Shown in pieces: positions 3,603 to 61,219 of a stretch of DNA of 64,000 nt. The notes below the pieces were generated by a model. That model was given only the letters and a program-made list of their open reading frames with translations, made no database searches and had not been told where the DNA came from. Within the stretch, counting starts at the first letter, position 1; each line of letters begins with the position of its first letter. A program made the position numbers and the translations under genes. The DNA comes from Microthyrium microscopicum (lineage: Eukaryota), in assembly GCA_010405405.1 (NCBI GenBank), contig MU004236.1, positions 694,576 to 758,575 on the forward strand, in the 5' to 3' direction.

Positions 3603-3995
3603 TCAACGGTACTGTGTGCAAGCGCACAGCACAACTGCATAAGACTGCACTTGGGACTAGACGGTGAAAAGGGCGCCTTACAATGATTTCATAAGCACTA
3701 ATGCTTATGAATCTATTGAGAGAGAAACGGCGACAGCGAAGGAAGCTGTGGTCACAGGGCAGGATCCCGGCTATTCACTGATCGAGATATGATTTCTTTT
3801 TGAACTAATTTTTGTCTGATTGATAGAATAACTTCTCTTCAAATTCAATCTGTGAATTCGTTCTTCTCTATTATTCGAACAGACCGTTCGTTGATCTGTT
3901 TGCAAGAACACATCCCGTTCGCTGAAGATGTATATAACAAATCATACTCCAGGGTCATTAGACTCACACCTGAATGCTAATCCAATGAAGTAATA

Positions 3996-13019: not shown

Positions 13020-14722
13020 CTATATACTATCGTAGAGTAGATTATAAAGCTATAATATATTTAAAAGGCGTAAATTTAATCTTTAGATACCTATTCTTTA
13101 TTTAGAACAAGTTTAATAAGATTTAAGATAAAAATAACGTATTTAGTCTTCTTTATAATATTAAGCTAGAATTTAGCGTTAATTTTATTAATATACTAGT
13201 CCTATAAGATCTAGAGCTTTTAATTAGCTTAATCTTAAAGTATTTAAATATTAAGAAAGCTTTTTAGAGTACTTAAATCCCTTATAGCATAATACGTACT
13301 AAGTTTATATTTTATTTTATTTACTTTTACTTAATATACTTTTAGTAAGAGAAAGAGGAAATTATTAATATAATAAAAAAGAAAAATAGAATACTAAACG
13401 TATTTAAAAAAGTAAAAGTCTTTTAAAATAGGCTTAAACTTTATTATATAGAGAGTAGCTCTTATATCCTAATACTATAGTAATAAAGATCTTAATAGTC
13501 TATAAAGGGTATAGCAAAGTAGTAAGACCTTTCTAAAGATATTAAAACCTTTAAAGTATTAAACTAGAACTATTTTATCTAAAATAGTATTTAAAAAGGC
13601 ATTTATAGTATTAAATTAGTAAAGATCTAAATTAAACGTAGCTATTAGCGTAAGAATTATACATAATATATAGTAAGCTTTAATAGTAGTATAAATCTCT
13701 AGTTCTAGATTTTAGTATTATAGATCTCTTCTTATATAAATTCTAGCCTTATATTTAAGAAGGAAGCTATTTAAATTATACTTCTCTAAAAATACCTACT
13801 TTAAGGGTAGAATAAGCTTATTAGTTTAAAGGGTATAGACCTCTTTAAATATACCTTATTTCTAAAGTATTTTAATTTTAATTCTAATAGCTAAAAGATA
13901 CTAGTCTTAATTAGGGCGTTTTATTATTTTAAACTATATTTTTAATAATTCTAGTATATTTCTTTTATAATAGTATTAAACTAAAGCTATAAAGAACATA
14001 TAATATAATAAAGCGAGGAAGTAAGATTTATAAAGTACTAGATTAGTAGTCCTTAAGGATTATAAAATATAACTACTTCTTATAGCGTATATAAAGATAT
14101 TTTAAAAGGCTTAAATCTCTTATTTGTACTTAGTAATATACTACTATTTTAGGCAAGCTATTAGAGTAGCTAGTAGCAGTACTAGTAGAATTATAAAAGT
14201 AAAATCTTCTAAAGTATTTTCTCTTAATTTAGTATAATCTCTAGTAGATAACAGACTTATAAAGGGTATTAAATATCATAAAGAAGGCTAAGATAATAGT
14301 AATAATATAGGATTAGGCGTTATTAGCTAGTCGTTAAATATAAGTTAATTAGAATTGTTTTTAAAAGTCTAATAGCTATCTTATTTTTACTATTAATTAT
14401 TCTATACCCCCTAATTTTAATTAGGCTATTATTTAGCTTCTTATAGGTTAAATATACTACTACTAACGTCTATTTTAAGATAAGAGAGCAGTATATCTAG
14501 AGGTACGTTAGCAAATTAGTCGTTAATTATAGTAAGCGCAATAGTATTAAATTTAATAATTTTATTAATTATAATATCTCATACTTTAATAATATAGTTA
14601 TTTAAAGGAATCTAGACCCTAAAGATATTACTTTTAGTATAACCTATTAGCTAGCCTTTAATTAAGCAAGATTAAAGCTTCTTAAGCTTTAGAATATTAG
14701 GATTATAAATATAGGCTTTTAA

Positions 14723-15197
14723 NNNNNNNNNNNNNNNNNNNNNNNNNNNNNNNNNNNNNNNNNNNNNNNNNNNNNNNNNNNNNNNNNNNNNNNNNNNNNN
14801 NNNNNNNNNNNNNNNNNNNNNNNNNNNNNNNNNNNNNNNNNNNNNNNNNNNNNNNNNNNNNNNNNNNNNNNNNNNNNNNNNNNNNNNNNNNNNNNNNNNN
14901 NNNNNNNNNNNNNNNNNNNNNNNNNNNNNNNNNNNNNNNNNNNNNNNNNNNNNNNNNNNNNNNNNNNNNNNNNNNNNNNNNNNNNNNNNNNNNNNNNNNN
15001 NNNNNNNNNNNNNNNNNNNNNNNNNNNNNNNNNNNNNNNNNNNNNNNNNNNNNNNNNNNNNNNNNNNNNNNNNNNNNNNNNNNNNNNNNNNNNNNNNNNN
15101 NNNNNNNNNNNNNNNNNNNNNNNNNNNNNNNNNNNNNNNNNNNNNNNNNNNNNNNNNNNNNNNNNNNNNNNNNNNNNNNNNNNNNNNNNNNNNNNNN
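14723..15197. other. Assembly gap (run of N)
   Basis: 475 N characters. Confidence 1.
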
Positions 15198-15639
15198 ATA
15201 CTTTTTATAATTATAGTAATTATATTTAAAAAGTTATTAATAGAAATTAAAGAATAAAAAATATATTTATCTTTAAACAATTATAACTTAATTAACTTTT
15301 AAGATATAAAAATAATAAAAACATATCTAGATAGAGCTTAACAAGCTCTAAATAGTAATATAAAAATTATACCTTAAAGTTACCTATTTGGGTTACGATG
15401 TCTCTAATAACTACGATAAATTTTAAATAACTACAATAGATTTTAAATAACTATAATAGATTTTCGATGTATTTAAAATAACTACGATAAGTTTAAAATA
15501 ATTAGAATAACTAGAATTATTTAATACTTTATCCGATATATATCTAATGCGCATCTAATGTCTTTAAAATAACTAAAATAACCGTTTTACCGTTAGATAC
15601 GTAGTCCAATTTGCGATACATAATAATTTTTTTACGATG
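15198..15639. repeat. Right part of a TIR-bounded repeat unit (copy 1; left part presumably in the gap)
   Basis: Near-identical to 19568-20009 (offset 4370); ends ataataatttttttacgatg; subterminal ~20-bp repeats of type taactacgatagattttaaa. Confidence 0.85.
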
Positions 15640-22941: not shown

Positions 22942-25379
22942 TCAGAATAGCTCATACTGCACTTCTCTGCCACCGTTGAAATAGAAGGCTGAAGCTTCTA
23001 CTCCAGACATCAGTCCTATCCGCTTTCGTTGGTTTTTCTTCGTTGTTGAGCTGGGAAACAAAACCAGTGCGTATGCTTGGCGACCCATCGGACCCCGGTA
23101 TTGCTGCGGTGTGCCATGAGGACCCTCACGAGAATATGTTCGTGAGCCAAGAGGACCAGTAGTGCAGAGAAGCAAGCATTCGAGAAAAAGAGGCTCAGTG
23201 CCAAAGTTTTCGTCCAACATATACTCTGCAACATCGTCATCGAAGTAATCAAAGTTGATCTTGCCGATTTCATACTGCCAGTATGGAGTCATGTGGCTTT
23301 TGAACCGTTTCTTTTTGAGGTCCCAAATACTAACATCATAGCAGGATCTTACATGTGGCGATCCTGGATTATCATGCTCTTCGAGATTTGACGATGAACC
23401 GGGCTTTCTCGTCCAGGTAGGCACCAGTACCATCCGTGACCTGCCACGTAGCACCAGTGGCTTGTCTTCCTGCAGCGTATCCAGAGGAGAGATATCTGCA
23501 TCAGGTCTGCTTTCGTTAATCTGGTCAGGATCCGACTGTGCGTCGTCTGATGGCTCTCCTTCAGATCGTTCTCTGAGCTTATTGACATTACCGAAATCGT
23601 CTGGCTCTGGCCAACTAAGGAGCTCAATTTCACGACTTGGTTCATCGTCTTTTGTCACTACGTTTCCCATGTAACGAATCATTTGAAGACCTGCGTAAGG
23701 GGGAAAAGTCACTGCGCCATCGTAGTAAAGCCAACTATAAGTTGGATATAAAAACAGCTGATTGTTTGAGTATAGTCTGCCATATTTGTCGGCCATCTCG
23801 GCCGCGTTCCTTTGGTGCTTCGAGTACTTGTCTGCCTTCCAAGCCAAGTCAATGTGTAAAGTCTCGGTCCATAAACCGCAGAGGTAGGTCCCACGCTCCG
23901 GTCGCTCGTAGGCATTGCGGATCGCATGAATAGCCCCGACTTTGTCGTTCAAGTCTCCTAAGGTGCGTTGAGAGTAATTTGACACTAGCCAAGGCCATGA
24001 ATCTCGAGCTGTTACAGTGTCATGCCCTAAAACTCGTTAGTGGAAGTTTTCGCAGTATCGATACAACGGTCATAGACTACTATGGGGTTTTTTTGTTCCT
24101 GACAGACCGGATGTAGGAGTCTACCTGTAACGCAAAGTGTTCAAGTGGATGACTTACCAGATGTATCCATCAGCTCCATCAGTTTTGTGTGCCAGAAATA
24201 GTCTCTCGGTGTCGGACCACCAGTGCTTAGTGTAGTTGTCTTGCATTTCCAATATGGCTGGACATTCGAGAAGAATATAATTCTTTTGGACAGCATCATC
24301 TCTTGAAAAGTCCAGCCGCGTTTATGAAGTGGTTCGTAATCCAGAGTCCACCTGTTAGGATACGATCCTCCGAGACGGCTCATTTTCATGCTCGATGGGG
24401 ACTTTCCATCATGTGAGTTTAACACATCAAAATATAAACTCGAATCTCCTGGGCGAAGGAAGTTTTGCCCACATCCTGAGGTATTACTGGCCGCAATCGT
24501 CAATTGAGCATTAGAATAAATGTATCCCATTTTCTTGATTTCTTCCTTTTTTGACAGTGTGTCGTCCTGAACGATACATAATGCATCGATCCATAAATAC
24601 GGAATCTCAAGTTTTCGACTCACAAGTATTGCATCTTGAATAGCTTTTGGCAATGTCCATACTGATATGCCTTCTGTGTGGTCCTGGAGATTGTCTAATG
24701 TTGTTGTGACCTGCTGATCCGTGGCAGAATTGCCCCAGCAATAACTCAAAGCTGTATAGCGGATATCGTCAGAGAGCAATGCGATTTCCACAAGCTGTAC
24801 TGAATGATTGGCGGTTGCATCCAGCTTCAGTAGTCTTCTAGGCATTACAGCTTGCCCATTCGATTTGACATGACAATTCTCATGCTCGGCATCGCAGATC
24901 GTAATCCAACTTTTCATGATTGAAAATGAGCTATCAGATATTGTGTCGGACAATACTGGTCGATCAGGTATGAAAGTAGCGGCCTCAGTGCCTTTCGGTA
25001 ACAAGATCAGCGCATGTATCAAAGAAGTAAAAGCCTGACACTGCTTACCTTGTTCTGCTACGATTTCGATGTAGTTCCAATCTCCAGTCTTGAAGGAGGG
25101 AGCAGTTAGTTTCAAGGTGTTCTCAACATGCGCTTTGGATGCTTTTGAAGAACCGAGAGATAGACGAATCTCAAAAGCATCAGGGTCTATTGTTCTGAAA
25201 TGATCAAGCAGTGAACTGAATATCGACCTTTTCCTCTCTCCTCTACGAAAGAACTCTGAAATCTGGTGACAGAAGGGGCAGCTACTGGATTCAAGATGCT
25301 TTCGACTGCCCCTATACACGCGTTTTGGATAATGTTGCTCCAATATCTCGCGGCAAGGCTGGCAAATGCTTGAGTTCAT
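22942..25379 (-). CDS. HET-domain protein; introns near 25020, 24140 and 24050
   Basis: PRRLL, YTALSYCWG, LPKAIQDAI..YLWIDALCIVQDD, MGYIYSNA, PLHKRGWTFQE; C-terminal part NYSQRTL..DK..AI..YLCGLW..DLAW..PTYSW. Confidence 0.9.
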
Positions 25380-26141
25380 GATGGGTTGTGGTGGCCACGT
25401 TCACATACGCTGGAGATGATGGTTTGCATACGTTTTCGAGACGATAAGCTGCTGGTAAAATCTGTCAGGCTCTTGTCAGGAGTAGCCATTGTTGATGTTA
25501 CGCAGCCGCTGAAAGCGAAAGCAGCCAATGATCCATAGCCAAGAACTCAGCCACCAAGTCTTTCGATTGTGAAGGTCGATTGCCTTGATGAGTGCCGGCA
25601 AGGCGCAACAAGAGCCGACAAGAGCCATGATCGGTTCTGCGCTCTTTGAGAGCGGTCAAGTCTAGGATTCAACAGCATTTGGCGAATGCCATATATATTC
25701 CTGAGGTCATTAGAAGCCCCCACGGCGATTACTTAAATACTTGCTTGGAGAAAGCTTGAAGTGCGCATCTCTACATCCTGAACACAACCACAAGCGGCAG
25801 GCATCACGGGCGAGACTGAACGCCTCTCTACGATTCATGCTATTGAAACGAAATGGCACATAAGCAATTGAAAGATGAAGGACAAAAGTAAGCTTCCTTA
25901 AAGAATCAAGAGATGAAGTCAAGTCCTGGCGCAATCTCATTGGTCAGCGTGCCACGCGACTTATCCCTGTCAGATCGTGAAGCTCTTTTGGCTCTCGCAT
26001 CAAAATGAATCAACCCAGTCTCAACTTCCCAGTTCCAACAACTCCATACACCATAAACATTCCAATCACCACAATCACGAACGCCAAACTTCCCCCTAAC
26101 CTCCTCTCCACCACCCTCAATCTCGACCCCCCAAACCCAAC

Positions 26142-27288: not shown

Positions 27289-29165
27289 CTACCGAACTGT
27301 TCGCTCAATCTCTTGCACCACGCTCTGTGTCACATCTCGAGTTCCGGACGATCCACCCAAATCTCTAGTCTGCACATTGTTAGCAACAGATCAATTGTAG
27401 ATGTTAGCTCTCACGAAATGCGATAGCTGAAATCGCAACTGAGGGCAGCGTAACAACATGCTCGGGTACGAAATGAACTTACTTTAACTCCCCATTCTGT
27501 CGCATTTTCAAAGCATCTCAGCAAGTGATCTGCAGCAGTCTGTTCCCCTAGCCATCTAAGCATTTCAGCCGCAGCCCACATGGCGCCAATTGGGTTGGCT
27601 ATGCCTTTACCAGCCAGATCAGGCCGGCTGGGCATGATAGGTTCAAAAGTGCTGGGGTTCTGGCGAGTAGGATCCAAATTTGAAGAACATGCTATTCCCA
27701 AACTTCCACTCAATGTGGATGCCAAGCTCGCAATAACATCAGAATGAAGATTCGTAGCCACTATGGTATCCAGAGAATGAGGATCCATTGTCATTCTCTC
27801 GATCATAGCATCAACTTGCATCAAATCGGCTTCTACATCAGCATAATCTTTGGCTATTTCTGTAAATATGGTGTCCCCTGTAAAAATTAGGATTAGGTTA
27901 CTGCCTGATATGATGGAAACTTACAGAATACCATTCCCCATCGTTGCATATTGCTTTTGGTTACTACGGTCAGCTTTTTCCGTGGACGAGCCTTTGCAGT
28001 CTCAAAAGCAAATCGAAAGATTCGCTCAGTAGCATGCCGCGTGAAAATGGTAACCTCAGTCGCCACGCCGAACGCAGCTTTTGGATGGGTTACACCACCT
28101 TGACCAGAGTATTCTCCTTCGGAGTTTTCACCGATGACCACCCAATCAAGATCCATTCTATCGATTGTACGAAGTGGAGAAGTTATACCGCGTAAGATAC
28201 GAATTGGACGGATGTTGATGAATTGTTTGAGCTCTTGACGCATATGAACTCGCAGTCCCCATATGGAAAGATGTTCTTGTACGTCTATTAAATAAGTCAG
28301 TTACTATTTGGATGATGTCAGTTAAGGTTAGCTTACCGTTCACTCCAACAGCTCCTAGGAATATAGCATCAAACTTTTTCAATCGCTCCATGGCGTCTGG
28401 TGGCATAAATAGACCGTGTGTCTTGTATGATTCAGAGCTCCAATCAAAGGTCTCGAATTGGACCTCAAATTTTTTGGTCGCAGTTGATAGTTTCTGGATG
28501 ACGCTGACAGCGGCCTCAGTAATATCAATGCCAATGCCATCGCCAGGAATGAGAGCAATCTTATGGACCTTCATCTTTTTTCTAGCACTTGCTGGAGTCT
28601 TTTCAACCAAAGGTCCATGATTGTGGTTGGGGTGCTTGATCTTGAGATTCCAAACGCTCGAGTTAGGAGCTTTTTGAATCAAGATCTGGAACATGCAACC
28701 TGTGCTTCGACTCGTCCGCTCGCGGATTGTACCTCGTGGTTGATATTGACCATGTCGGTCGCAATGGTAATAGTATCGTGTCTTAGCTACGTCCTTACCA
28801 TCAGGCTTGGATCGCTTGAGAGACATTCCATACCCATGTTCGCGAGCAAAGGTCATCATAGCATTGATTGCTTGCTCGGAGCTCATATAGGTCAGCTCGG
28901 GAGGTGCAGGCAATGGGTGATGCGGCGGCGTAGCCACCTGGGGACTGCCTTGTTGTGCATGTTGACTTGGAAGGGAATTGGAGACCAATGGCGTAGTCTG
29001 AAGGGAGCTTGACGCGAGGGAGGATAGTTGGTTGTGATGGACAGGTGTTAGGGAGGCAGCATGGTTGTGGACGTCGTCCATGTCCAGGAACCCACTGGCT
29101 ATGCGATCATCAATGTTGCCAGAATGGTGGTGACCCGCATTCGAGATTCCAGAGGGGCCGTCCAT
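27289..29165 (-). CDS. Fusion protein: low-complexity N-terminus, FAR1/MULE-type zinc DNA-binding domain, and tartrate dehydrogenase-like (IPMDH/IDH family) domain; exons 29165-28337, 28284-27925, 27877-27483, 27369-27289
   Basis: FAREHGYGMSLKRS..YYHCDRHG..SRSTGCMF..W..HNH runs in the same exon into KIALIPGDGIG; then NIRP, ENSEGEY, TKSN, VDAM, ATNL, FEPI, GIANPIGA, TRDLGG. All three introns are gtaag(c/t)..ag. Confidence 0.85.
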
Positions 29166-29987
29166 GATGGGTAAAATAGCAAATTTGGGGGTTGTAGAGG
29201 TTTGAGTTGTTTGGATTTGCGGTGGTGGAGAAAGAGCACCGGGGGTTGGCTCTATGCCCGTTTTAGTCGTCGCCTAAAGTGCAGACTGCGATTGAGATCA
29301 CCTCAACTCTATCTTTAGTTTTTGCCTTGGATGAAATCTGTTTTGCTTGAGAATGAGCAGTTTCTCGATAATTGATGTGTTCTTGGTGATTTAAAAATTT
29401 CAAGAGATTTTATTCGTGCTTGGTTGAGAAAGGTGAATGGATGGGGGAGAATATTGAGCGTAGCAGTGCTGGGACTGGGCAACGACTATATCCGTAGAGA
29501 GGTGAAGGAAGGAAGGAGCGAGCCCCCTTTTGGTAGGGTCGACAAAGCTAGCTTACTTATCATCCTCCCCTGGGCTCCAACTAGCGCTGTTTCCGTTGTT
29601 GTTGACATCAAATTCGAAGATCTTAATGCTCGTAACAGGTATCACGATCTAGGGAGTACAAATGAGATAATTATAAGCTAGAGAGAAGATACTACGAATA
29701 TGGAATAAACAAGCTCCAGAGTAATTTTCAATTGTACAGCTCATAGGCATATCTAATGTACGCGATGTGCATTGCAACTCTTATTGTGCTTCTTATCTTC
29801 TCCACACTCGTATCCTCTAGCAGTATGTTATACAAATCTCGTTATTCGCATGGCGACTGACCATGTTAAAGTTTGCTGGTTGCCCCTTCCTACTATGATC
29901 GTCCAGGACATTGGTGGTATGCGGCCATATGTTGGCAGCTGGTCATGATTTCAGATATTTCCGTCGTCCAGGCATCTAGCCAAATAT

Positions 29988-50191: not shown

Positions 50192-51533
50192 TCTAGCCTT
50201 GGACTCCATCTATATTCACCCCAGCTTCGAAGCGGTCTAGCTCCACTATGGGCAATTCTTAGCCGGCCAAGATAGGCGACAGAAATAGATGAAAGTCGCT
50301 AAGAGGGGGAGATTTGTCAATGGTGAAGACCCGTGTGATGGGAACGGTGTTTTGGTTGGTATACCCCATGGCTTTTAATTTCCTAATGCGATAATGCCCC
50401 TTGACCGCAGTGTATGTCTGAGTGAAACAGTCAGCTGTAAGTGAATTTGCTTGAAGAGGCTCACGGAACACAAACAGGCACATCAATATCATAGAAACTG
50501 CCCATGGACTAGCCCGAGGAATCTGGCCTCGGGATAAGTCTCCAGTAGAGAAACCCTTGCCCAACCGAACAAGATCCACTTCCTATATTTCCCCAGAGGC
50601 GCATGCTCAAGATGTCCGGGGAACACTTGCGGGAGCAATGTCCTGCTATTGGCCCCTGACCTCTGTTTGTCTATCATATAATTTACGATGATCAATCTAA
50701 CATTACTAGAATAGGAGAACCGTTCAGAGACATCGAAAACCACAACGCTTAATACTAGCAAGGATAATTTGCCATCGATTCGAAAATCAGCCAGTAGTCA
50801 TATTCAAATTCCGGCCCTACCACCCAAATTTTGAAATATCATTTTTCTGATTGGCGAAATATTTGATTCAGACAGACGCTTCCATCTATAGGGCAGCCTT
50901 GCAGTTCTTCTACCTCTTGACAAAAACCATTCAATTAGCACTGCGGATTATGCTACAATTTGACCTTTGTATCAGTGATACACGTCTATTCGAACTCGAA
51001 AGTGAAAGTTTCTACCTGGATCATTTCCAAATCGTACAGTCACAAACTCAGCATCGTATTACTCCTCTTCTACATTTACCACTACATTGTCTATTTAGAT
51101 GATTGAAGACCCATCGACCATCCTTCTCCTTTATCAAAGGATGAAGGAAGTTACACAAATGCGGCGAAGTTCACACCCATCATGTCCACCGTACCAACTT
51201 GGGCGGCGAGCAGGACAGTACAAATCCAAGGGAATTGATTATAGCGTCACGATGTCTGCTGTTAGCGAGATCTTAATAGGCTACTATCCCTGGATCTTTA
51301 CCTTCCCGCGGTCCGTGCAATCCCTTAATCTTGTTTATATTTCAATATACCAGCCTTGGTTTAATCCTATACTTTGGTCACACTACCCGGAGAGCTGTTC
51401 TAGGTACTCTACCCTTTTAGATACATTTCAGATCTTAGATCTGCATATTTCCTTGCTGGTGTTGAAGATATATATCTCTTCCTAAGAATCGACGTGCGGA
51501 TGTTGTTGTTTTAATTTTCTATCCTTCGCAAAA

Positions 51534-53498
51534 ATGGCCCACGGCCCTGACGATAAGACGGGAGGCGTCAGCTATGATAACTATCATACGGACAGCAATA
51601 ATGATATCGACGGTCCTGAGTTCACTCCGGCGGAAGAGAAGAAGATATGGCGCAGAGTGGATTTGAGACTGGTGGTACTTATCGGATTCATGTATTGTGT
51701 GTCGTTGATGGATCGCGCAAACTTGAGTAATGCCAGTATGTTTGAGTCGAACATTTGTGTGAAGACTGAAGCTAAGCAAGCTCTTTTCTAGAGGTCGCTG
51801 GAATGGAGTCGGACCCCAGAGACCCCAAGTTCAAGCACGAGCAAGGACTTAACTTGATAGGCTTCCGATATGTAAGTTATTCGAATCAATGACAGTTAAC
51901 CTTGAGTTCTTGAGTGCTAATCCGAGGCCATAGAACATCATGTCTCTCGTTTTCTTTCCACCATACATTATTTTTCAAATCCCTTCCACTGTTATCGTAC
52001 GAGCACTGGGCCCACGACTTCATCTGGGAACGATCACATTGCTATGGGGGAGCGTTATGGTCGCCATGGCTTTCGTTAACGATTGGCAAGTTATGGCAGG
52101 AATGAGAGTGCTACTCGGAATCTTAGAGGCAGGGTTCTTCCCAAGCTGCGTGTACTTGTTGAGTACTTGGTATACGAGATGTATGGAGCGGTCTAAGCAA
52201 AAAGCCTCAGTGCTGACGAGTTACAGATGAGATGGGTAAACGGTATTCGCTATTCTACATCCTGGGATGCGTTGCCTCCGCATTTGCAGGTTTACTAGCT
52301 TATGGGGTAAGTAGAGGCTTGATATTGAGTGAGTTGACATTCAGGACTAACACTTCACAGATCATGAGTCTGCAAGGAAAGGCAAATATGGCCGCCTGGA
52401 GATGGATCTTTGTAGGTTATATGGAATGATAAGAGCCAGTTAAGCCAGCTTACTAACAGCTTGCGCAGCTTATAGAAGGACTAGTATGACCTTGCCTCCA
52501 GTTTGATCTTCCAAGAAGAATCTAACTTTCGCTAGCTCACCATTTTTATGGCTCTCCTGGGCTATGCTCTGATTGTTGGCTTTCCCGATCAGTGGAAACC
52601 AAGGTATTTTTTGTCACTGCACGACTCTACAGGCTTTTCTGACCATTTCAACAGCTGGCACTTCCTCAGTGAACGGGAAGTCAAATATGTCCTCAGCAAG
52701 GTGAATGAAGACCGTGGAGATGCAGTGGTCGAGCCCTTTTCCATGGGAGTATATTTGCGCTCCGCTCTTGACTGGAAAATATGGTGCTATGCGATGATCT
52801 TTTTCAACAACACGACAGTCACCTACGGTTTGGCTTACTTCTTACCCGATATTCTTCGTAAATCGTTGCATTATGACCAGAAAATGAGCCAGATCATGGG
52901 CGCTCCGCCGTATATCGCTGCTGGAGTCGTTATGTACCTCACAGGCTGGATTGGAGACAAGTATCAGATTCGTGGGCCGATCATCATCTTCAACATGATT
53001 CTTTCCCTCATTGGGATTCCCCTACTTGGCTGGACCACAAATGGCTCAGTCAGATATTTTGGGATCTTCCTTCTCGCTGCCGGTGTCAACGCAAACATTC
53101 CAGTTACTATGACATACCAGGTAAGATAAAATTCTGCAACGTAGGAGAACTTTGCACTGACGTATCTTTTCTCAGGCAAACAATATTCGCGGTCAGTGGA
53201 AACGCGCCTTTTGCAGTGCGACCCTCGTCGGATTCGGAGGCATCGGTGGAATTGCAGGCTCTCTTGTCTTCCGGGCACAGGACGCTCCGGCATACAAGCC
53301 GGGCCTTTTCGCGTGCATGGCATGCTGTATTCTCAACATAGTAATAGTGACCATTCTCACTCTCAATTTTACGAAGCGCAATCGTGACGCGCGGGCAGGC
53401 AAAAAGTTCATTGAAGGAGCAGATGTAAGTCAAACTCAATCTTTGCCAGTGCTGAACTAATCTTGTCATTTTAGGATGGATTCTTATACACGATATGA
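51534..53498 (+). CDS. MFS transporter, anion:cation symporter (Dal5/Tna1-like) family; many introns including a 15-nt micro-exon (~52470-52484)
   Basis: RRVDLRL..SLMDRANLSNA, FFPPYIIFQIPS, R..LGILEAGFFP..YLLSTWY, AWRWIF|LIEG, APPY, NNIRGQWKRA, GFLYTI*. Confidence 0.92.
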
Positions 53499-54170: not shown

Positions 54171-55342
54171 TTTAGAATTATGCTCCATTTCACAAAATTT
54201 GAATATGTTTAGCTAATTCAATGCCACAAAGCTGACACGGTCTTCGTGTTCATTGATCAAATTCATTGCTAATTTGACGACCTTCAAAGACGTAATATTT
54301 CGTACCTTGTCATTCCATAATTACCCTGCTACAGTTTGTTGAAATTTAGCTTCCAATGCGTGCCACACAACTCCGTGCAAGCCTCTACTCGAGTTCAAAC
54401 ACGTAACCTCCGACTTGCTTAACTTTCCACCACCCATTTTGAACCGTCAGCGTAGTTTTGACGTAGCCAGTAACTTCAATAGTAAGGCTGATCTAGGCCA
54501 CATCCTCCAATAGGCCGTTCTACAGCCTTTTGACACGATTGACGCGCTTGGCGTTGCTCAGTATAGCGCCCCCTCCCTTCAGTACGCGCCGTGGACTGTC
54601 ATGACTGGCTCAATCGACCCCAGCACCAAAGCCCAGTTTTGCAACGCCGAAAAGGAGCGAGTGCCATCGAACTGAAGCCTACTGGCATTACTATTCTCAT
54701 TCAGCCAAGAGAGTGAGGTTTCGAAGACCCCTCTCGTGGCTCTTCACCCGCCAGGAGCCCAGCTCAGGGGCTTGTTGGCCTTCCATTGCATATCTTTTCT
54801 ACAGATTACCTGTTCCAGTATCCCATCGAGCGTCCGGATATTATTGATCTGATCTACGGATTTTCTACAAGGTTCAGTACGAAGGCTCAAGGCTTTTGTG
54901 ATGGCTGAGTTGCAAAGTGGCAGCGCATGTTTCTAGCGCTTGACCACAGGGAGCTATCAAAAGCTCGTCTTCTTGCACTCACAGTTTCAGAATCCCAACA
55001 TGTCCACGCCCGTCCTAGGAAGCCGTACTTGGCAAGGCTTGTATGTTTCTTGAATTTTCCACTGTCATTAACCGCAGAGTAAAAAGCCTCTTGCTATATG
55101 TTAGGCCTCATCGTCGTGGAAACATTTGGTCATGTCGGGGTAGTTGTCATCCTACATTGGTACAACTGTATTCATTCTTTTCCTCTTCTACTAGGCGTGA
55201 TATTCATTCATTCTTGCTGGCCAAGCTATATTCAGTCTTTTAAACCTCAAATATCGAAGCTTGTTCGGTTTCATTTCAACGGGCCGGCAGATCAAGTGCA
55301 TAAACCTCCTAAACCATATTGAACAAAACATATACAAACATC

Positions 55343-56400
55343 ATGAAGACTATCTTCCTGGCTTCAGCACTGTTACCCATCCTAGCGTTTGCTAGAGATA
55401 ACCCATTCGATCCAAAAACCAGTAAAGGCACGTTCGGTCCTTTCACACCGGCTAAGAAAGCACTCAAATCCGCAACCGGTGCTCCAGCAACAGTCGACGA
55501 TGATACAGCTCAAGCCCTCCAGACCGCATGCGACAACTGGACCGCAGACACGGGAAAAGTGTCCAATTTCCAAAACATTGGCTCATCCACTGCATCTGGC
55601 TCCCAGTTCACGAATGCCGCCAACATCGCCTATAAGGCTGAAGTCGACGAACTAACCCACAAAGCCAGTAAGTCTCACCCTCTTCCTCCTCCTTCAAGTC
55701 ACTGTCTAACAATACCCTAGTTCTCGACAAGATAATCGGCAAAGACCCAACCGTCTCCATCGCCAACCAAACCCTCACCAACGGTGTCTTCCAAAGCGTA
55801 GTCGACAACCTCCAAATCATGAGCATCCAAGGCAAATCGCGCGTAAACCTTATCGACACGATAAACAGTGTACGCTGCACGCAGATTCTACCATCCATTG
55901 ATGCCTACTGTGCCGTGGTCGCGCGCACAATTGGCGGAGGAACACAAGCGAAGACAGCAGTTAGGCCTTCCGCTTGTGCAGCGATTGTCGCCGCAGACAC
56001 GGATCCAGCAGACTATCCAAACGTGCCCAATGTCCCTGGAGGAACAGCGCTGGCATCTGCGCCGTCTTCGAGTGCCAGTGCCAGTGCTGGCGGCAATGGG
56101 GGAAGTAGTTCGAATGGGGGTAATGCAGGAAGCAGCACTGGGACGACAGGAGGAGGACACCATTCGCATAACAACCGGAAACGATATTTCGCTGGAACGG
56201 AATATATTGCAAGAGAAAAGACTCCTAATCGTAAGCGATATTTCGCTGGAACGGAATATATTGCGAAAGAGAAGAATACCAACCGCAAACGCTACTTCGC
56301 AGGTACGGAATATATTGCCAAAGAGAAGAATTCTAACCGGAAGCGATACTTCAAAGGCAGCGACTATATCGCGAATGAACCTAGCGAGGTTTCTCATTAG
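55343..56400 (+). CDS. Secreted protein with Cys-containing domain and C-terminal Kex2-processed peptide repeats (KEP / candidate RiPP precursor); intron 55668-55720
   Basis: Signal MKTIFLASALLPILAFA; ~200-aa region with 4 Cys; Gly/Ser linker; four NRKR-YF(AGTE/KGSD)YIA units. Confidence 0.85.
56173..56397 (+). repeat. Coding tandem repeat, 54-bp (18-aa) unit x4
   Basis: Units start at 56173, 56227, 56281 and 56335; NRKR is encoded aac-cgg-aaa-cga, aat-cgt-aag-cga, aac-cgc-aaa-cgc, aac-cgg-aag-cga. Confidence 0.95.
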
Positions 56401-56771: not shown

Positions 56772-59370
56772 TCATGCTCCCGTAACGGCCTCGACGCGCT
56801 TCAGAAACTCACGTACCCGTCCCACATCATTCTCTGGCTCACTCTCCACCGCCTGTACGAGCTGTGGTAACACTGGATCGACTTCATCCTCAGCAACACC
56901 AGTACATAATGAGACAACTTTACGGTACTTGCTTTCAAGCTCAGTATCGCGCGCCTTGAGCGACATGAGGTGCGCGTTAAGACTCGCAAGCAGCTGGTTA
57001 TACGTGCCAATCTGCGAATTCAGATTCTGCGGGTCTGGGGTATCAGCCGGATCTTGGAGGTCGAACGCAGAAGAGTCAGGGAGGAGGTAGTCACTATCAG
57101 CATCACCGACAGAGAGCGAAGGAATGCCGCCACGCGCATTGCCAGAGTTGCCGATACGATCGCGGATTTCACCAACAGCACGTCGCAGGTTCTGGATTCG
57201 TTGCTTGCGTTCCTGGCGGCCTTGCAGTTCGGCAGTCTGAGCGTCGACTTGGGTGGTGAGTACTTTCTGTTTGCTGGAGAGATCACGAATTTCATGGGTG
57301 GATTTGTCAATTCGGTCTTGTAGGAGGCGAAGTTCGGTACTGAATTGGGATGAGGTTTGTGTCATGGATGTAGTGAGAGCTGGATGAAGTTGTTAGTCAG
57401 GTCATAATTATAGGCTTAGGAAACATACTTGGCATGAGCTCCTGGGAAACTTCTTCTGCTTTGCTTGGGACCTTGGACTTGGGACTTTCGGCTATCCTTT
57501 GAGATAAGCCTTCCGAGCTCTCTGGGTCTATTGGCTCAACACCAAAGTCGACAGGCCGTAATCCTTTATGATTCGGAATGGTTGGGTCAGCTTGCACTTC
57601 GACGAGCTGTCGGATTATACTGCTATTCCCAATTCTTGCCACTAGATTTAGCGCGGTGTTTCCTGCCATATCTCTGGCATTGACCATCTCGCTCATAAAA
57701 CGCATGAGACCGATAGGCGCTTTTGGTTGGCTACTATTGCCACCATCGAAAGAAGAGCTGGAGTTGTCATTGTTCGTTCTTCGTACAAGGAACTCGAGAA
57801 GTGCTTCCAGATAGTATTTTGAGCTTGTGTTTCGACCACGAATGCCAGATGCTAAAGCAATGTGATGCAGGATTGTTCGTCCTTTCGAGTCCCTGATCTC
57901 TATAAGAGAATTCAGGAGCTCGAGAAGGTCAGGAAAACAAGTATGATCAAGGCAATTGTTCACTTGGACGGCGGCCATCAAAGGGGTTTCACCAGCGATA
58001 TTTCCTCGGAAGATACTGGCTCCCTTGGCAATAAGCAGCTTCATTAGAGGAATCCTTGCGAGCGTTGCAGCCCAGTGGAGAGCGGTGTTTGCCGATTGAT
58101 CTAAAGGTAGATCGAGATCAGGACCCGAAAGATGTAAGATAGCCGGATGATTGGTATAATCAGTTCGATGGAGATCGGCAAAGAGATCGAGAAGAAGCGA
58201 TTGTTTCTCTTCACTAGACTTGTCTGAGGGATGAGGTAGTGGTGGGTAAGCAATTGGGACATCGCCGTCCGAAGCCATGGCTTGATCTGAAGGCCTGTAG
58301 AGGAAAGATTCGTTTGCTTCAGTGGGCGACCCATCACGAATGAAAGATTGTGATTCTCCATTCATGTGTGAATAATCAGCATCTGGTGTGCTTGGTCTCA
58401 TTCGTTTCCTTGGTGGTTCTTGAGAATCCATGCCTCGATCGAGTTGTTGGGTGATGTATGCAGAATCCGTACCATTGAAACTACGCTCATGATGTAACCC
58501 AGGATTACTCCGTTGGCTTGAAGGCTGCTGAGAATTCTGCATTGATTCCTGACTATTAGGGAAAGACCGCGCAGCGGAGCCGGGACGTCTTGGAGCGCTT
58601 GCCGGCCTTTGGGGAGGAGTATTCAGTCGCGCCGCTCGATTCATAGCAGATATCGCATTTGATGCTGCGGAGGAGAGGTTGGAGAAGAATGTTCCAGTCC
58701 CTTGCGGCCCTTGAGGCTGGCGACCGTCCTGAGTCTGAGTATATAGCCGTTTACGATTGGCAGCCATTGCCTGTTCTTTCGTTGGAGTATCGACACCATT
58801 TCCAGGTTGACCACTTCCATCGGCACTTAGATCATAGTCCAGGAGGGGTCGCAAGAGTTCTTCAACACCATACTGTCGGCAGAATTCGCGACCTCGGCGA
58901 TAATTTATCCAGGTTCCTTGATATTTGCCATAGCCACCTTGCACTTTTTCATGTTCACCGGTGAGGATCTCTTTCTCTAGAACTTTTGTCCTCTTTCCCT
59001 TGTCAACGCCCGCGACCTTTAATATTTGAGTGGCATTGAGCCACGAGTCGGATCTGCGTCTCATTACAACAACTCTGTTGATAACCATTTCATATACTTG
59101 TACTCCGGAGTAAACAGCCTAGTGGGAATTTAGTGCATGCCATCAACAAGCAGTGTTAACCAGTTCGCTTACAGTATAAATTTGAGGAGATGGAGCCATT
59201 TGCTGATGCGCTCCTCCATTCATATCAGGAAAACTGCTGCGATAGCTGGACATGGCGCTCTGTTGGGAGCCATACATCATCTGGCCATTTCCATCTTGGG
59301 AGGATGTAAAGGAGGCAACATTACGAGGATCATATGGAGGAATAGACATTGTCGGAGCGGTCCCCTGCAT
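56772..59370 (-). CDS. SWI6: APSES/KilA-N plus ankyrin cell-cycle transcription factor (Swi6/Cdc10-like MBF/SBF subunit); introns ~59119-59170 and ~57381-57428
   Basis: IYT|AVYSGVQVYEM..VMRRRSDSWLNATQILKVAG..EKVQGGYGKYQGTWI; ankyrin repeats NTALHWAA, ETPLM, RTILHH, NTALN; C-terminal coiled coil KYRKVVSLC. The start codon is tentative. Confidence 0.85.
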
Positions 59371-60231
59371 TGCGACCGCTGGAGTATGGTAATGGTGAAG
59401 AGGCAGCAAAGGTAGTTGACTAGACGCAAAGGTGTGCGGACTGCATGGGTGTTTGATATTAGGTGATGGCTACGAGCGCAAACTGGCAGAGAGAATGATA
59501 ATGCGAATTCCGACAGATGAGAGGATCGGACAGTGGAACAGCGTAGAACAGCGCAAATAATGTTGAACTTGAAGCGATTGGAAGAAAGAGATGGCGTCGC
59601 GCGTCTTCAGCTTCGGGCTTGAGACGCGTTTTCCAACTTTGCTCGGCCCCTCTTTCATTAATACAAAGCTAGCCCAGAGTAAGCAATCTTTAGCGAATTA
59701 AGATACATAAATTCTGAATAAGTAATTTCTGGGGTACTTTCCTTTACTCTGCTCGATAGACGATAATTTGCACCTTATCCTCGATTCCTCACCCTCTACT
59801 TCCTATCGACATCATCTTGGTCCAACTCTAGCCTGCCAGGCCACTCATTTCAGACGATAAATCCATCGACTACGATCTCTACCATAAGACTTCTCGACGG
59901 AGGAAGGCGTCCGTCGCATCGAGCGCTTTGCATACCTACAAGATTGTCGAATGCGAAGGTACTTAGCGCCTTGCTTTTTCAAAAGTCTAGAGGTCTGGGT
60001 AGATTGATGGAGGACCTCAGTGGCTCTCGTAGTTTGATACCAGGTATATCGCGTCAACAATCGCGTCATCGCAAGCTCAACGTCGCGGATAAGCTTCTCA
60101 AGATCCATTCTGTTGCTGGTGAGGAGCCATGAAGGTGTAAATGTGGGTATCATAATAATATTATCCGCATGATAAATCTGGTTTACGACTGCGCAAACTC
60201 CTGCTATGCTAATATTTCAGACAAAATGCGC

Positions 60232-61219
60232 TCAGTCAGCGTGAGGTCCATTTTCATGGTACTCTGATAACGTTCCCCTTTCTATTCTCCTCCTTTTCAA
60301 CCAGTGTCTAATGTTGTTGAAGTTTCGGCAAGTATGAGTTCCTCCATGAGCAATATACATCTGCTCTCCATTCATAACCGCGCCTTCTTGTTTATACAAT
60401 GGTATCGGAGTGAGGTCTCCATGGCACTCAACGACCTGTCGAACGTAGTCTAGACAATGTTCTTCATTGAATGTTAGCTGAATCGAGCGTCTCGTAGTTG
60501 GAGGACTTACCCATATGAACTTCCGAAAAATGTGGCGGAAATTGTGGTCCATCCTGATGCAGTTTTCCGATACTTGTGTAGTAGTCTTTGAACATGTTGA
60601 TTCTGAGCGCGTTCACACAATGTAAGCCGTGGACGACGCCGACAGCAGCAAAGTAGTTGCCAGACTTGTTCTCTCCTTTTATCTTGACAAAGTCTTCTCT
60701 GGCAAACGGTTTTGCTTCTTCGTCTGTAAGACTAAAGAACTCGTCTTTCAAGATGTTCGCCCAGTTCTTGTCGATTTCCGGATAGACGGCTGGATTCCCG
60801 AAATATCGAGGCTCATTAGCTGGTCTCTCGTACCAGAAGTCTTTCGCCGTGTTGTTCCAGACTATGCCACCGGAAAACACTTTTTGCTCGAAATCAATGT
60901 ATTGCCGTGCTTGTTCAAAGTCCGTCGCGAAGCCTGGCTTTTGCTCATTCACTTCAAGCTGTTTTGCTGCCAGATCAGTGAGAATCTTTTCCAGGTGCCA
61001 TAAGCGGAAGAGTAGAGCCAGGACGACGATTCCTAAGAGAAAACATGATGCGGCGGCGAAAAAGAAGAGATTTCGGAATCTATCTGATCTCGAATGGCTG
61101 TATAAATAGTGTCCTTCTCTTGTTGGCGTGTCCACTTCAGTGTCGCTCTGATCATCTTCGCTGAAGTCCTCCCTTATCACTCGTAACGGTTTGCTTTCTT
61201 CCATGTATCGTGGGCTCAT
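60232..61219 (-). CDS. DUF3328 / UstYa-like oxidase; intron 60462-60510
   Basis: N-terminal TM helix; PRYFG.P..EIDKNW; two HXXHC motifs, VHGLHCVNALR and spliced VHM|EHCLDYVRQVVECHGDLTP; HTCRNF..IR.W. Confidence 0.92.

Follow-up and report, generated by a model that had tools for sequence, protein, structure and literature searches.

Introduction

Genome mining for fungal peptides that are made on ribosomes and modified after translation (RiPPs) targets small, repeat-only precursors beside DUF3328 genes. Here we describe a candidate precursor of a different build, encoded at 55343-56400 in a stretch of 64,000 nucleotides from Microthyrium microscopicum, a filamentous leaf-litter fungus (GenBank assembly GCA_010405405.1, contig MU004236.1, positions 694,576 to 758,575 of the forward strand; this whole stretch is called the window, and positions are counted from its first letter). 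The protein consists of a predicted signal peptide, a folded domain, a linker and four Tyr-rich peptide units, each preceded by RKR, and an UstYa/DUF3328 gene is the second gene downstream of it.

Among the closest described systems are the Kex2-processed repeat proteins (KEPs; Le Marquer 2019, PMC6339444; Umemura 2020, PMC7329392). In the passages of the latter survey on which we draw, KEPs are defined by an endoplasmic reticulum signal and at least three tandem repeats of at least 8 residues between dibasic sites, and proteins with any segment of more than 100 residues were dropped. A DUF3328 gene was located within 15 genes for 22% of 7878 KEPs and was lacking for 78%; the mean distance was 3.09 genes, with a peak of the counts at the adjacent position, and 31.8% of 9399 DUF3328 genes lay within 15 genes of a KEP. 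Tyrosine occurred in 65.6% of the repeats in KEPs accompanied by DUF3328 and in 38.2% of those in unaccompanied ones, and genes of the major facilitator superfamily (MFS) were not enriched near KEPs (PMC7329392). Kex2 itself needs Arg at P1 and Lys or Arg at P2 and acts in the late Golgi (PMC8528282).

Side-chain cyclization of the ustiloxins, phomopsins and asperipin-2a is reported to require DUF3328 proteins (PMC7329392). As described in PMC9233826, the cross-links connect the N-terminal Tyr with an internal Ile in ustiloxins and phomopsins and involve internal Tyr residues in asperipin and Phe and Leu in victorin. It was proposed that two HxxHC motifs distinguish DUF3328 proteins related to RiPPs and that DUF3328 is the enzyme by which the dikaritin class is defined, and the original five-gene definition with a tyrosinase, a methyltransferase and several DUF3328 genes was dropped by later definitions (PMC12048977). 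In Venturia inaequalis, nine loci were termed dikaritin clusters on the same grounds as apply to the Microthyrium locus, which fits the working definition of a dikaritin cluster as it is used there (PMC9632046).

The Microthyrium locus shares with the ustiloxin, phomopsin, asperipin-2a and victorin loci a putative signal peptide, repeated cores framed by kexin sites, Tyr residues and a nearby DUF3328/UstYa gene with two HxxHC motifs. It differs from them in that a folded domain of about 200 residues and a linker of 50 residues precede the repeats, in a core unrelated to those of ustiloxin (YAIG), phomopsin (YVIPID) and asperipin (FYYTGY), and in a housekeeping gene that lies inside the "cluster". 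Measured against the original five-gene definition, the window has a single UstYa gene, and neither a tyrosinase nor a methyltransferase was seen in its 49 open reading frames (ORFs) analyzed. As a KEP, the protein would be of the "stand-alone" type that lacks homologs and has four units of 15-17 residues, each following RKR, but it does not pass the limit of 100 residues per segment, which is a survey filter and not a biological property. As this filter is described, the survey of Umemura 2020 could not find such an architecture (PMC7329392).

Folded domains in KEP-like precursors have precedents. According to the description in PMC4617103, Hum3 of Ustilago maydis contains Kex2-separated repeats followed by a hydrophobin domain; like Rep1 and Rsp1, it is a single secretory precursor with repeats separated by Kex2, and it shares the presence of a folded domain with the Microthyrium protein. 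In Hum3 the repeats come first, are 31-36 residues long, amphipathic and combined with a hydrophobin, whereas in Microthyrium they come last, are 15-17 residues long, uncharged or acidic and combined with a helical bundle, and the two proteins show no homology. The statement in an initial annotation of this DNA, made from the sequence alone, that such precursors normally lack a large extra domain partly reflects the 100-residue filter and has an exception in Hum3. Precursors of the alpha-pheromone type are set apart by XA/XP spacers, the lack of which the same annotation had pointed out correctly: in Microthyrium, RKR is directly followed by YF, and no MF_alpha-type Pfam domain is present.

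In the fungal borosins and the plant burpitides, core peptides are carried by a large folded protein whose domain is the modifying enzyme. The bundle of the Microthyrium precursor shows no enzyme signature, and its candidate enzyme is encoded by a separate gene.

Gene Model and Architecture of the Precursor

The frame starting with the ATG at 55343 meets stops unless 55668-55720 is removed, which indicated an intron of 53 nt. The spliced product has 334 residues and is 100% identical to the NCBI entry P0003, the hypothetical protein BT63DRAFT_456013 of M. microscopicum, whose UniRef label "Cell wall protein" is an automatic name. Contigs of X1, the single public run with this DNA, omit exactly these 53 nucleotides; they likewise lack the intron predicted beforehand in UstYa and a pair of introns in the intervening gene, and each of these introns has GT..AG ends. 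We regard this as cDNA support for the gene model. Since introns of both genes are skipped, the precursor and UstYa genes were both transcribed in the X1 sample, whose label as RNA is a guess and whose contig depth is unusable for ranking expression. In the spliced contig, the repeat tail and the domain part share exon 2. The initial annotation had given the correct span without mention of the intron. One X1 contig bridges the precursor gene and the convergent Mbp1-type gene downstream, so that their transcripts meet or overlap at the 3' ends. The same contig has 672 extra letters past 55200 (record length 4306; the aligned part ends at 3634), which points to a long 5' untranslated region or another transcript upstream of the ATG, at about 54530-55342 (+).

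The putative signal peptide was judged by eye (Table 1), and the N-termini of homologs align similarly to it. In an AlphaFold2 (AF2) model calculated with 61 family sequences, blocks within residues 21-210 reached predicted local distance difference test (pLDDT) values of 90-98 and formed a four-helix bundle with helices at 53-79, 87-114, 118-149 and 152-179; residues after about 220 were disordered (pLDDT 33-48). The protein has four Cys residues (63, 161, 172 and 194) and two N-x-S/T sequons. Sites of the KR/RR type in the whole precursor are confined to the four RKR; a single KK is present at residue 38, and residues 40-260 are free of any KR, RR, KK or RK. This agrees with the initially proposed architecture of a signal peptide, a Cys-containing region of about 200 residues, a linker and RKR-framed peptides, down to the identity of the peptides listed.

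The Repeat Units Encode Conserved Peptides

Tandem Repeats Finder reported a period of 54 with 3.3 copies, 82% matches and a score of 227. At the protein level, the RKR sites occur four times at an exact period of 18 residues within the stretch modeled as disordered. The peptides predicted to be released are three near-identical 15-mers (YFAGTEYIA-R/K-EK-xxN) and one 17-mer, YFKGSDYIANEPSEVSH, at the C-terminus. Their calculated [M+H]+ values as linear peptides are 1759.865, 1748.849, 1734.833 and 1942.882, and their net charges are 0, 0, 0 and -2. Each unit contains two Tyr residues, and Y1, F2, Y7 and I8 are kept in all four.

The nucleotide differences between the units are informative on selection. 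In the 12-codon block RKRYFAGTEYIA, pairwise comparison of units 1-3 revealed 3, 6 and 7 synonymous changes and not a single non-synonymous one. The proportion of synonymous differences (pS) was 0.34-0.82, close to saturation, at a proportion of non-synonymous differences (pN) of 0; at least nine substitutions are inferred, all of them silent, in a block made up to about three quarters of non-synonymous sites. Because the silent differences are high and pN is 0, the copies are old and the peptide including the cleavage site is under purifying selection. Gene conversion is not behind the identical peptides, since it would have removed the silent differences as well. More variation is seen in unit 4 and, within every unit, in the final six residues, but unit 4 still reads YF-x-G-S-D-YIA. 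The initial annotation had likewise described mostly synonymous differences and a fourth unit retaining the motif and had concluded that the peptide is selected, for which the ratio of zero to at least nine changes provides the numbers. Taken as an in silico result, the evidence supports a putative secretory protein in which four kexin-type sites frame conserved Tyr-rich peptides under purifying selection.

The Repeat Tail Is an Orphan

When the 74-residue tail was compared with 1.84 billion representative proteins by phmmer, eight matches were obtained. The best two (P0094 and P0095) were gastropod KR-repeat proteins of Plakobranchus and Biomphalaria with a period of 18 residues. These are long proteins with units opening with KR-Y-[LF]-D-G, and they resemble uncharacterized precursors of the neuropeptide type. 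We rejected them as homologs of the tail and read the similarity as convergence of prohormone-type precursors. Tails that fall under a 50% cluster representative may escape this search, since the protein of the query itself was not among the matches. In a word-based search for the tail in 5.8 billion proteins, the 697 candidates with 183-585 residues contained no match other than the protein itself, the 457 candidates with 30-182 residues contained none, and the ESM Atlas gave no usable match with the tail. Full-text literature named the species, but neither the peptide core nor the locus tag was found there. A search of the supplementary tables of Umemura 2020, which give accessions and not sequences and whose data were downloaded in October 2019, gave no match for the genus, so that the species was not covered by that survey, and none for the core motifs. 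As judged by these comparisons, the repeat tail is without a homolog in anything searched, which bears out the initial impression of a core unlike any known.

The UstYa/DUF3328 Gene and a Proposed Route of Maturation

The UstYa gene lies 3.8 kb from the stop codon of the precursor gene as the second gene along, flanked by an Mbp1-type and an LYRM2-like gene. Its exon ORFs match PF11807 with E-values of 4.9e-14 and 1.1e-11, and its product has a membrane span at the N-terminus and the HxxHC motif twice, as HGLHC and, across the intron, as HMEHC. The analogy to dikaritins, which the initial annotation had drawn without mention of this gene, is thus strengthened by an intact and expressed UstYa/DUF3328 gene two genes off. 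The survey totals correspond to about 6 DUF3328 genes in each strain; with this value and an assumed number of about 10^4 genes, the probability of a chance adjacency within two genes is roughly estimated at well under 1%.

From these observations we infer secretion, cleavage, trimming, action of UstYa on the peptides and the chemistry of the product as follows. After removal of the signal peptide, the bundle with the disordered linker and the tail would reach the late Golgi, where kexin (Kex2) would cleave after each of the four RKR. The basic residues would then be trimmed by a Kex1-type carboxypeptidase, a step familiar from alpha-factor processing. The expected products are a bundle protein of about 240 residues, three 15-mers and one 17-mer. 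The membrane-bound UstYa oxidase would share the secretory compartment with them and link the side chain of a Tyr (Y1 or Y7) to another side chain. We favor this route from a kexin-processed precursor to a dikaritin-like product cross-linked by UstYa, with chances that we put a little short of even. The link to UstYa is supported by the position of its gene as the second one along, by the double HxxHC motif, by a core with Tyr and Ile and by the fact that the 64 kb contain no other candidate precursor. After the predicted cleavage, the peptides would have an N-terminal Tyr and an internal Ile, the pair of residues that is cross-linked in ustiloxins and phomopsins.

A number of observations weigh against this route. 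An Mbp1-type housekeeping gene is located between the precursor and the UstYa gene, which are on opposite strands, and the distance between Tyr and Ile (positions 1 and 8, or the neighbors 7 and 8) is unlike that in known cores. The precursor has only four units, compared to many more in classical precursors. Among the 49 ORFs of the window searched with Pfam, no tyrosinase, methyltransferase or peptidase was seen, and words common to the upstream regions of the precursor, UstYa and MFS genes did not exceed those in shuffled sequences. No relative has a repeat tail with which the pairing of precursor and UstYa could be compared, and no UstYa match (best E 0.68) was found in 24 homologous metagenome loci, of which those with long flanks belong to more distant relatives with 46-55% identity. 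The window ends 2.8 kb past the UstYa gene. About two thirds of the DUF3328 genes in the survey were not near a recognized KEP (PMC7329392), and DUF3328 proteins are also reported to have functions unrelated to RiPPs in hydroxylation, chlorination and transacylation (PMC12048977).

Several of these points would be expected if the precursor were a KEP that gives rise to linear, unmodified peptides with a role as signal, at the surface or in defense, and if the UstYa gene were nearby by coincidence or served another substrate. The cleavage sites and the selection on the peptides speak for such a KEP in the same way, and the separating housekeeping gene, the lack of further tailoring genes among the 49 ORFs and of a common promoter motif, and the end of the window, which leaves room for another precursor further to the right, all fit it, as does the 78% share of surveyed KEPs that have no DUF3328 gene nearby (PMC7329392). 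Against this, a DUF3328 gene two positions from a Tyr-rich KR-repeat gene falls in the range in which functional pairs concentrate, the counts of the same survey being highest next to the KEP gene (PMC7329392). With net charges of 0, 0, 0 and -2, the peptides are not of the cationic antimicrobial type, and the spacers of alpha-pheromone precursors are absent. We take linear peptides as the end products seriously and consider them unlikely on balance.

The Helical-Bundle Family and a Probable Origin of the Tail

Searches with the bundle domain identified 91 relatives at E ≤ 0.001, including proteins of Venturia inaequalis, Verruconis gallopava and Tothia fuscella, a paralog from the same fungus and many metagenome and metatranscriptome proteins. 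Neither the two exons of the precursor nor any of 61 family members matched a Pfam model. No Foldseek match in the Protein Data Bank (PDB) had an E-value of ≤ 0.001 (Mp1 domains appeared only at E 1.6-2.5), and a profile search against PDB sequences revealed no solved relative (best E 0.094). The best VIA-align Z-score of 10.6, obtained with BRIL and designed bundles, is under the tool's caution line for helical bundles. The ESM Atlas returned unnamed Ascomycota clusters only. Pfam, Foldseek and VIA-align gave no enzyme signature for the domain, and a hydrophobin domain was not detected in the precursor by Pfam; the domain is a four-helix bundle with four Cys. As far as these searches reach, the bundle domain is a conserved Dothideomycete family without a Pfam model.

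An alignment was made of 61 of the 91 relatives, with omission of 30 that were mostly truncated or not inspected, and a tree was calculated from the domain columns of 56 rows after removal of five fragments. It contained two clades with 100/100 support each, and the precursor belonged to the smaller one (18 rows). Among the other rows of this clade, 16 of 17 have a long tail of low complexity that leads into basic residues, a dibasic site and finally a short peptide with Phe as third-last residue, in the form linker, basic run, dibasic site and x(2-8)-F-x-x-COOH. Typical ends are RRS[MVI]xF[VA]A or KRWHPRLFQV. In the clade-I relatives (among P0004-P0082, alignment A2), the low-complexity tails before the dibasic C-terminus are often Lys-rich. 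An end of the dibasic plus F-x-x kind is present in 23 of the 91 family hits, and among these hits only the Microthyrium precursor has the same tripeptide after at least two KR/RR sites. In an AF2 model of one clade-I relative (P0011, 22 sequences), the C-terminal peptide was disordered (pLDDT 32-41) and thus gave no sign of docking on the bundle. The idea that short clade-II proteins result from intron read-through was dropped, as no instance was found.

From the tree and the shared ends it follows that the "extra domain" represents the protein's ancestral body and that the dibasic C-terminal peptide is a family trait. The Microthyrium tail is therefore better read as a lengthened family module, amplified fourfold, than as a foreign fusion, and the sequence suggests that the Y-I-A of the units may be derived from the F-V-A end of the family. 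The term "chimeric" in the initial annotation, in the sense of a fusion of unrelated parts, is not supported for a protein nearly all of whose clade relatives have the same order of linker, dibasic site and short C-terminal peptide. Searching domain and repeats apart, as had been suggested there to see whether homologs lack the tail, gave a divided result: the relatives are without the repeats, but nearly all of those in the clade do have the short dibasic end.

The family comparison brings in another possibility, namely that the functional product is the bundle protein itself and that the tail serves it in cis or in the manner of a pro-region, for example in sorting, in folding or in attachment to the wall or surface, and is a duplicated family module from which released peptides are by-products. 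The dibasic F-x-x ends in the clade and in the family as a whole, the resemblance of Y-I-A to F-V-A, the automatic name "Cell wall protein" and the count of 0 UstYa genes in 24 homologous loci favor this view. It does not readily explain why selection keeps RKR and the entire 12-residue block in three old copies, which goes beyond the needs of a charge or an anchor. Moreover, exposed dibasic sites in a disordered tail within the secretory pathway are expected to be cut, whereby an anchor would become detached, and the 15-mers have no net charge once RKR is removed. We judge a cis-acting tail to be rather improbable. Similarly doubtful is a combination with the preferred route, according to which a kexin-released mini-peptide of the RRS-x-x-F-x-A type, present throughout the clade, would have been extended, amplified fourfold in Microthyrium and then become cyclized by the neighboring UstYa to a new dikaritin-like peptide derived from a folded carrier protein, so that the locus would represent a RiPP precursor at birth. 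An annotation artefact or a neutral expansion of low-complexity sequence without function, for which the presence of the tail in one species only might be quoted, is very improbable and is contradicted by the spliced contig with tail and domain in one exon, by the identical NCBI model and by the core of units 1-3, with zero non-synonymous versus at least nine synonymous changes.

Other Features of the Window

Pfam searches with the 49 ORFs across the window detected mainly housekeeping genes and one UstYa gene. A six-frame search of the whole 64 kb uncovered no second ORF in which a peptide recurs behind dibasic sites. The Mbp1/Swi4-type gene between precursor and UstYa gene probably lies outside the peptide system; contigs reaching 59444 skip its introns at 57380-57428 and 59118-59171. 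It is doubtful whether the MFS gene, about 1.9 kb upstream of the precursor, belongs to the system. In the same 24 metagenome loci, tblastn revealed no Mbp1, LYRM or MFS match at E ≤ 1e-3. A tRNA scan of 50-64 kb found none. An N run (assembly gap) of about 470 bases is present at about 14700-15230 of the window. At 24141-25400 (-) and 28158-29273 (-) there are a HET-domain gene and, separately, one ORF matching FAR1; the match to the FAR1 DNA-binding domain shares its frame with the beginning of an isocitrate/isopropylmalate dehydrogenase gene.

Table 1. Features of the precursor gene and of its surroundings, in window coordinates.
Feature	Position	Strand	Basis
Whole precursor gene	55343-56400	+	Two exons; ATG 55343, stop 56398-56400
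Exon 1	55343..55667	+	Residues 1-108 and first base of codon 109; under RNA-like contig
Intron, 53 nt	55668..55720	+	GTAAGT ... CTAAC ... TAG; GT..AG ends; skipped by X1 contig
Exon 2	55721..56400	+	Residues 109-334 and stop codon
Predicted signal peptide	Residues 1-17, 55343-55393	+	MK, 14-residue hydrophobic core and AFA|RD, judged by eye
Four-helix-bundle domain	Residues ~20-210, 55400..56025 (spans intron)	+	AF2 and 91 homologs
Disordered Gly/Ser/Thr/His linker	Residues ~211-260, 56026..56175	+	pLDDT 33-48, composition
Unit 1: RKR + YFAGTEYIAREKTPN	56176..56229	+	Sequence
Unit 2: RKR + YFAGTEYIAKEKNTN	56230..56283	+	Sequence
Unit 3: RKR + YFAGTEYIAKEKNSN	56284..56337	+	Sequence
Unit 4: RKR + YFKGSDYIANEPSEVSH (C-terminus)	56338..56397	+	Sequence
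UstYa/DUF3328 gene	60232..61219; exon 1 61219-60511, intron 60510-60462, exon 2 60461-60232 including stop	-	Pfam PF11807
Mbp1/Swi4-type transcription factor	56772..59444 (approximate end)	-	Pfam KilA-N/APSES, ankyrin and C-terminal coiled coil
MFS transporter gene fragments, several exons	51486..53460	+	Pfam MFS_1, E 7.5e-10; ORFs

Discussion

The locus falls within the KEP/dikaritin scheme and is no new kind of system, and folded domains in precursors are known from other cases. The novel aspects are the orphan core, its location on a member of a conserved four-helix-bundle family, and the fact that such precursors are missed by the filters used in genome mining. A further new aspect is the evidence, drawn from sequence comparison, that a multi-core tail may have grown from a dibasic C-terminal peptide present throughout the family.

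If only the formation of linear peptides or the role of the tail in cis were true, the protein would add to the number of orphan KEP-like proteins and be of modest interest. If the locus is active in the way proposed, secreted proteins with a folded domain can at the same time serve as multi-core precursors, and the substrates of some "orphan" UstYa genes may sit unnoticed in the tails of proteins of ordinary appearance. A picture of how a multi-core precursor may originate, namely from a C-terminal pro-peptide that is duplicated in tandem, is offered by the family comparison.

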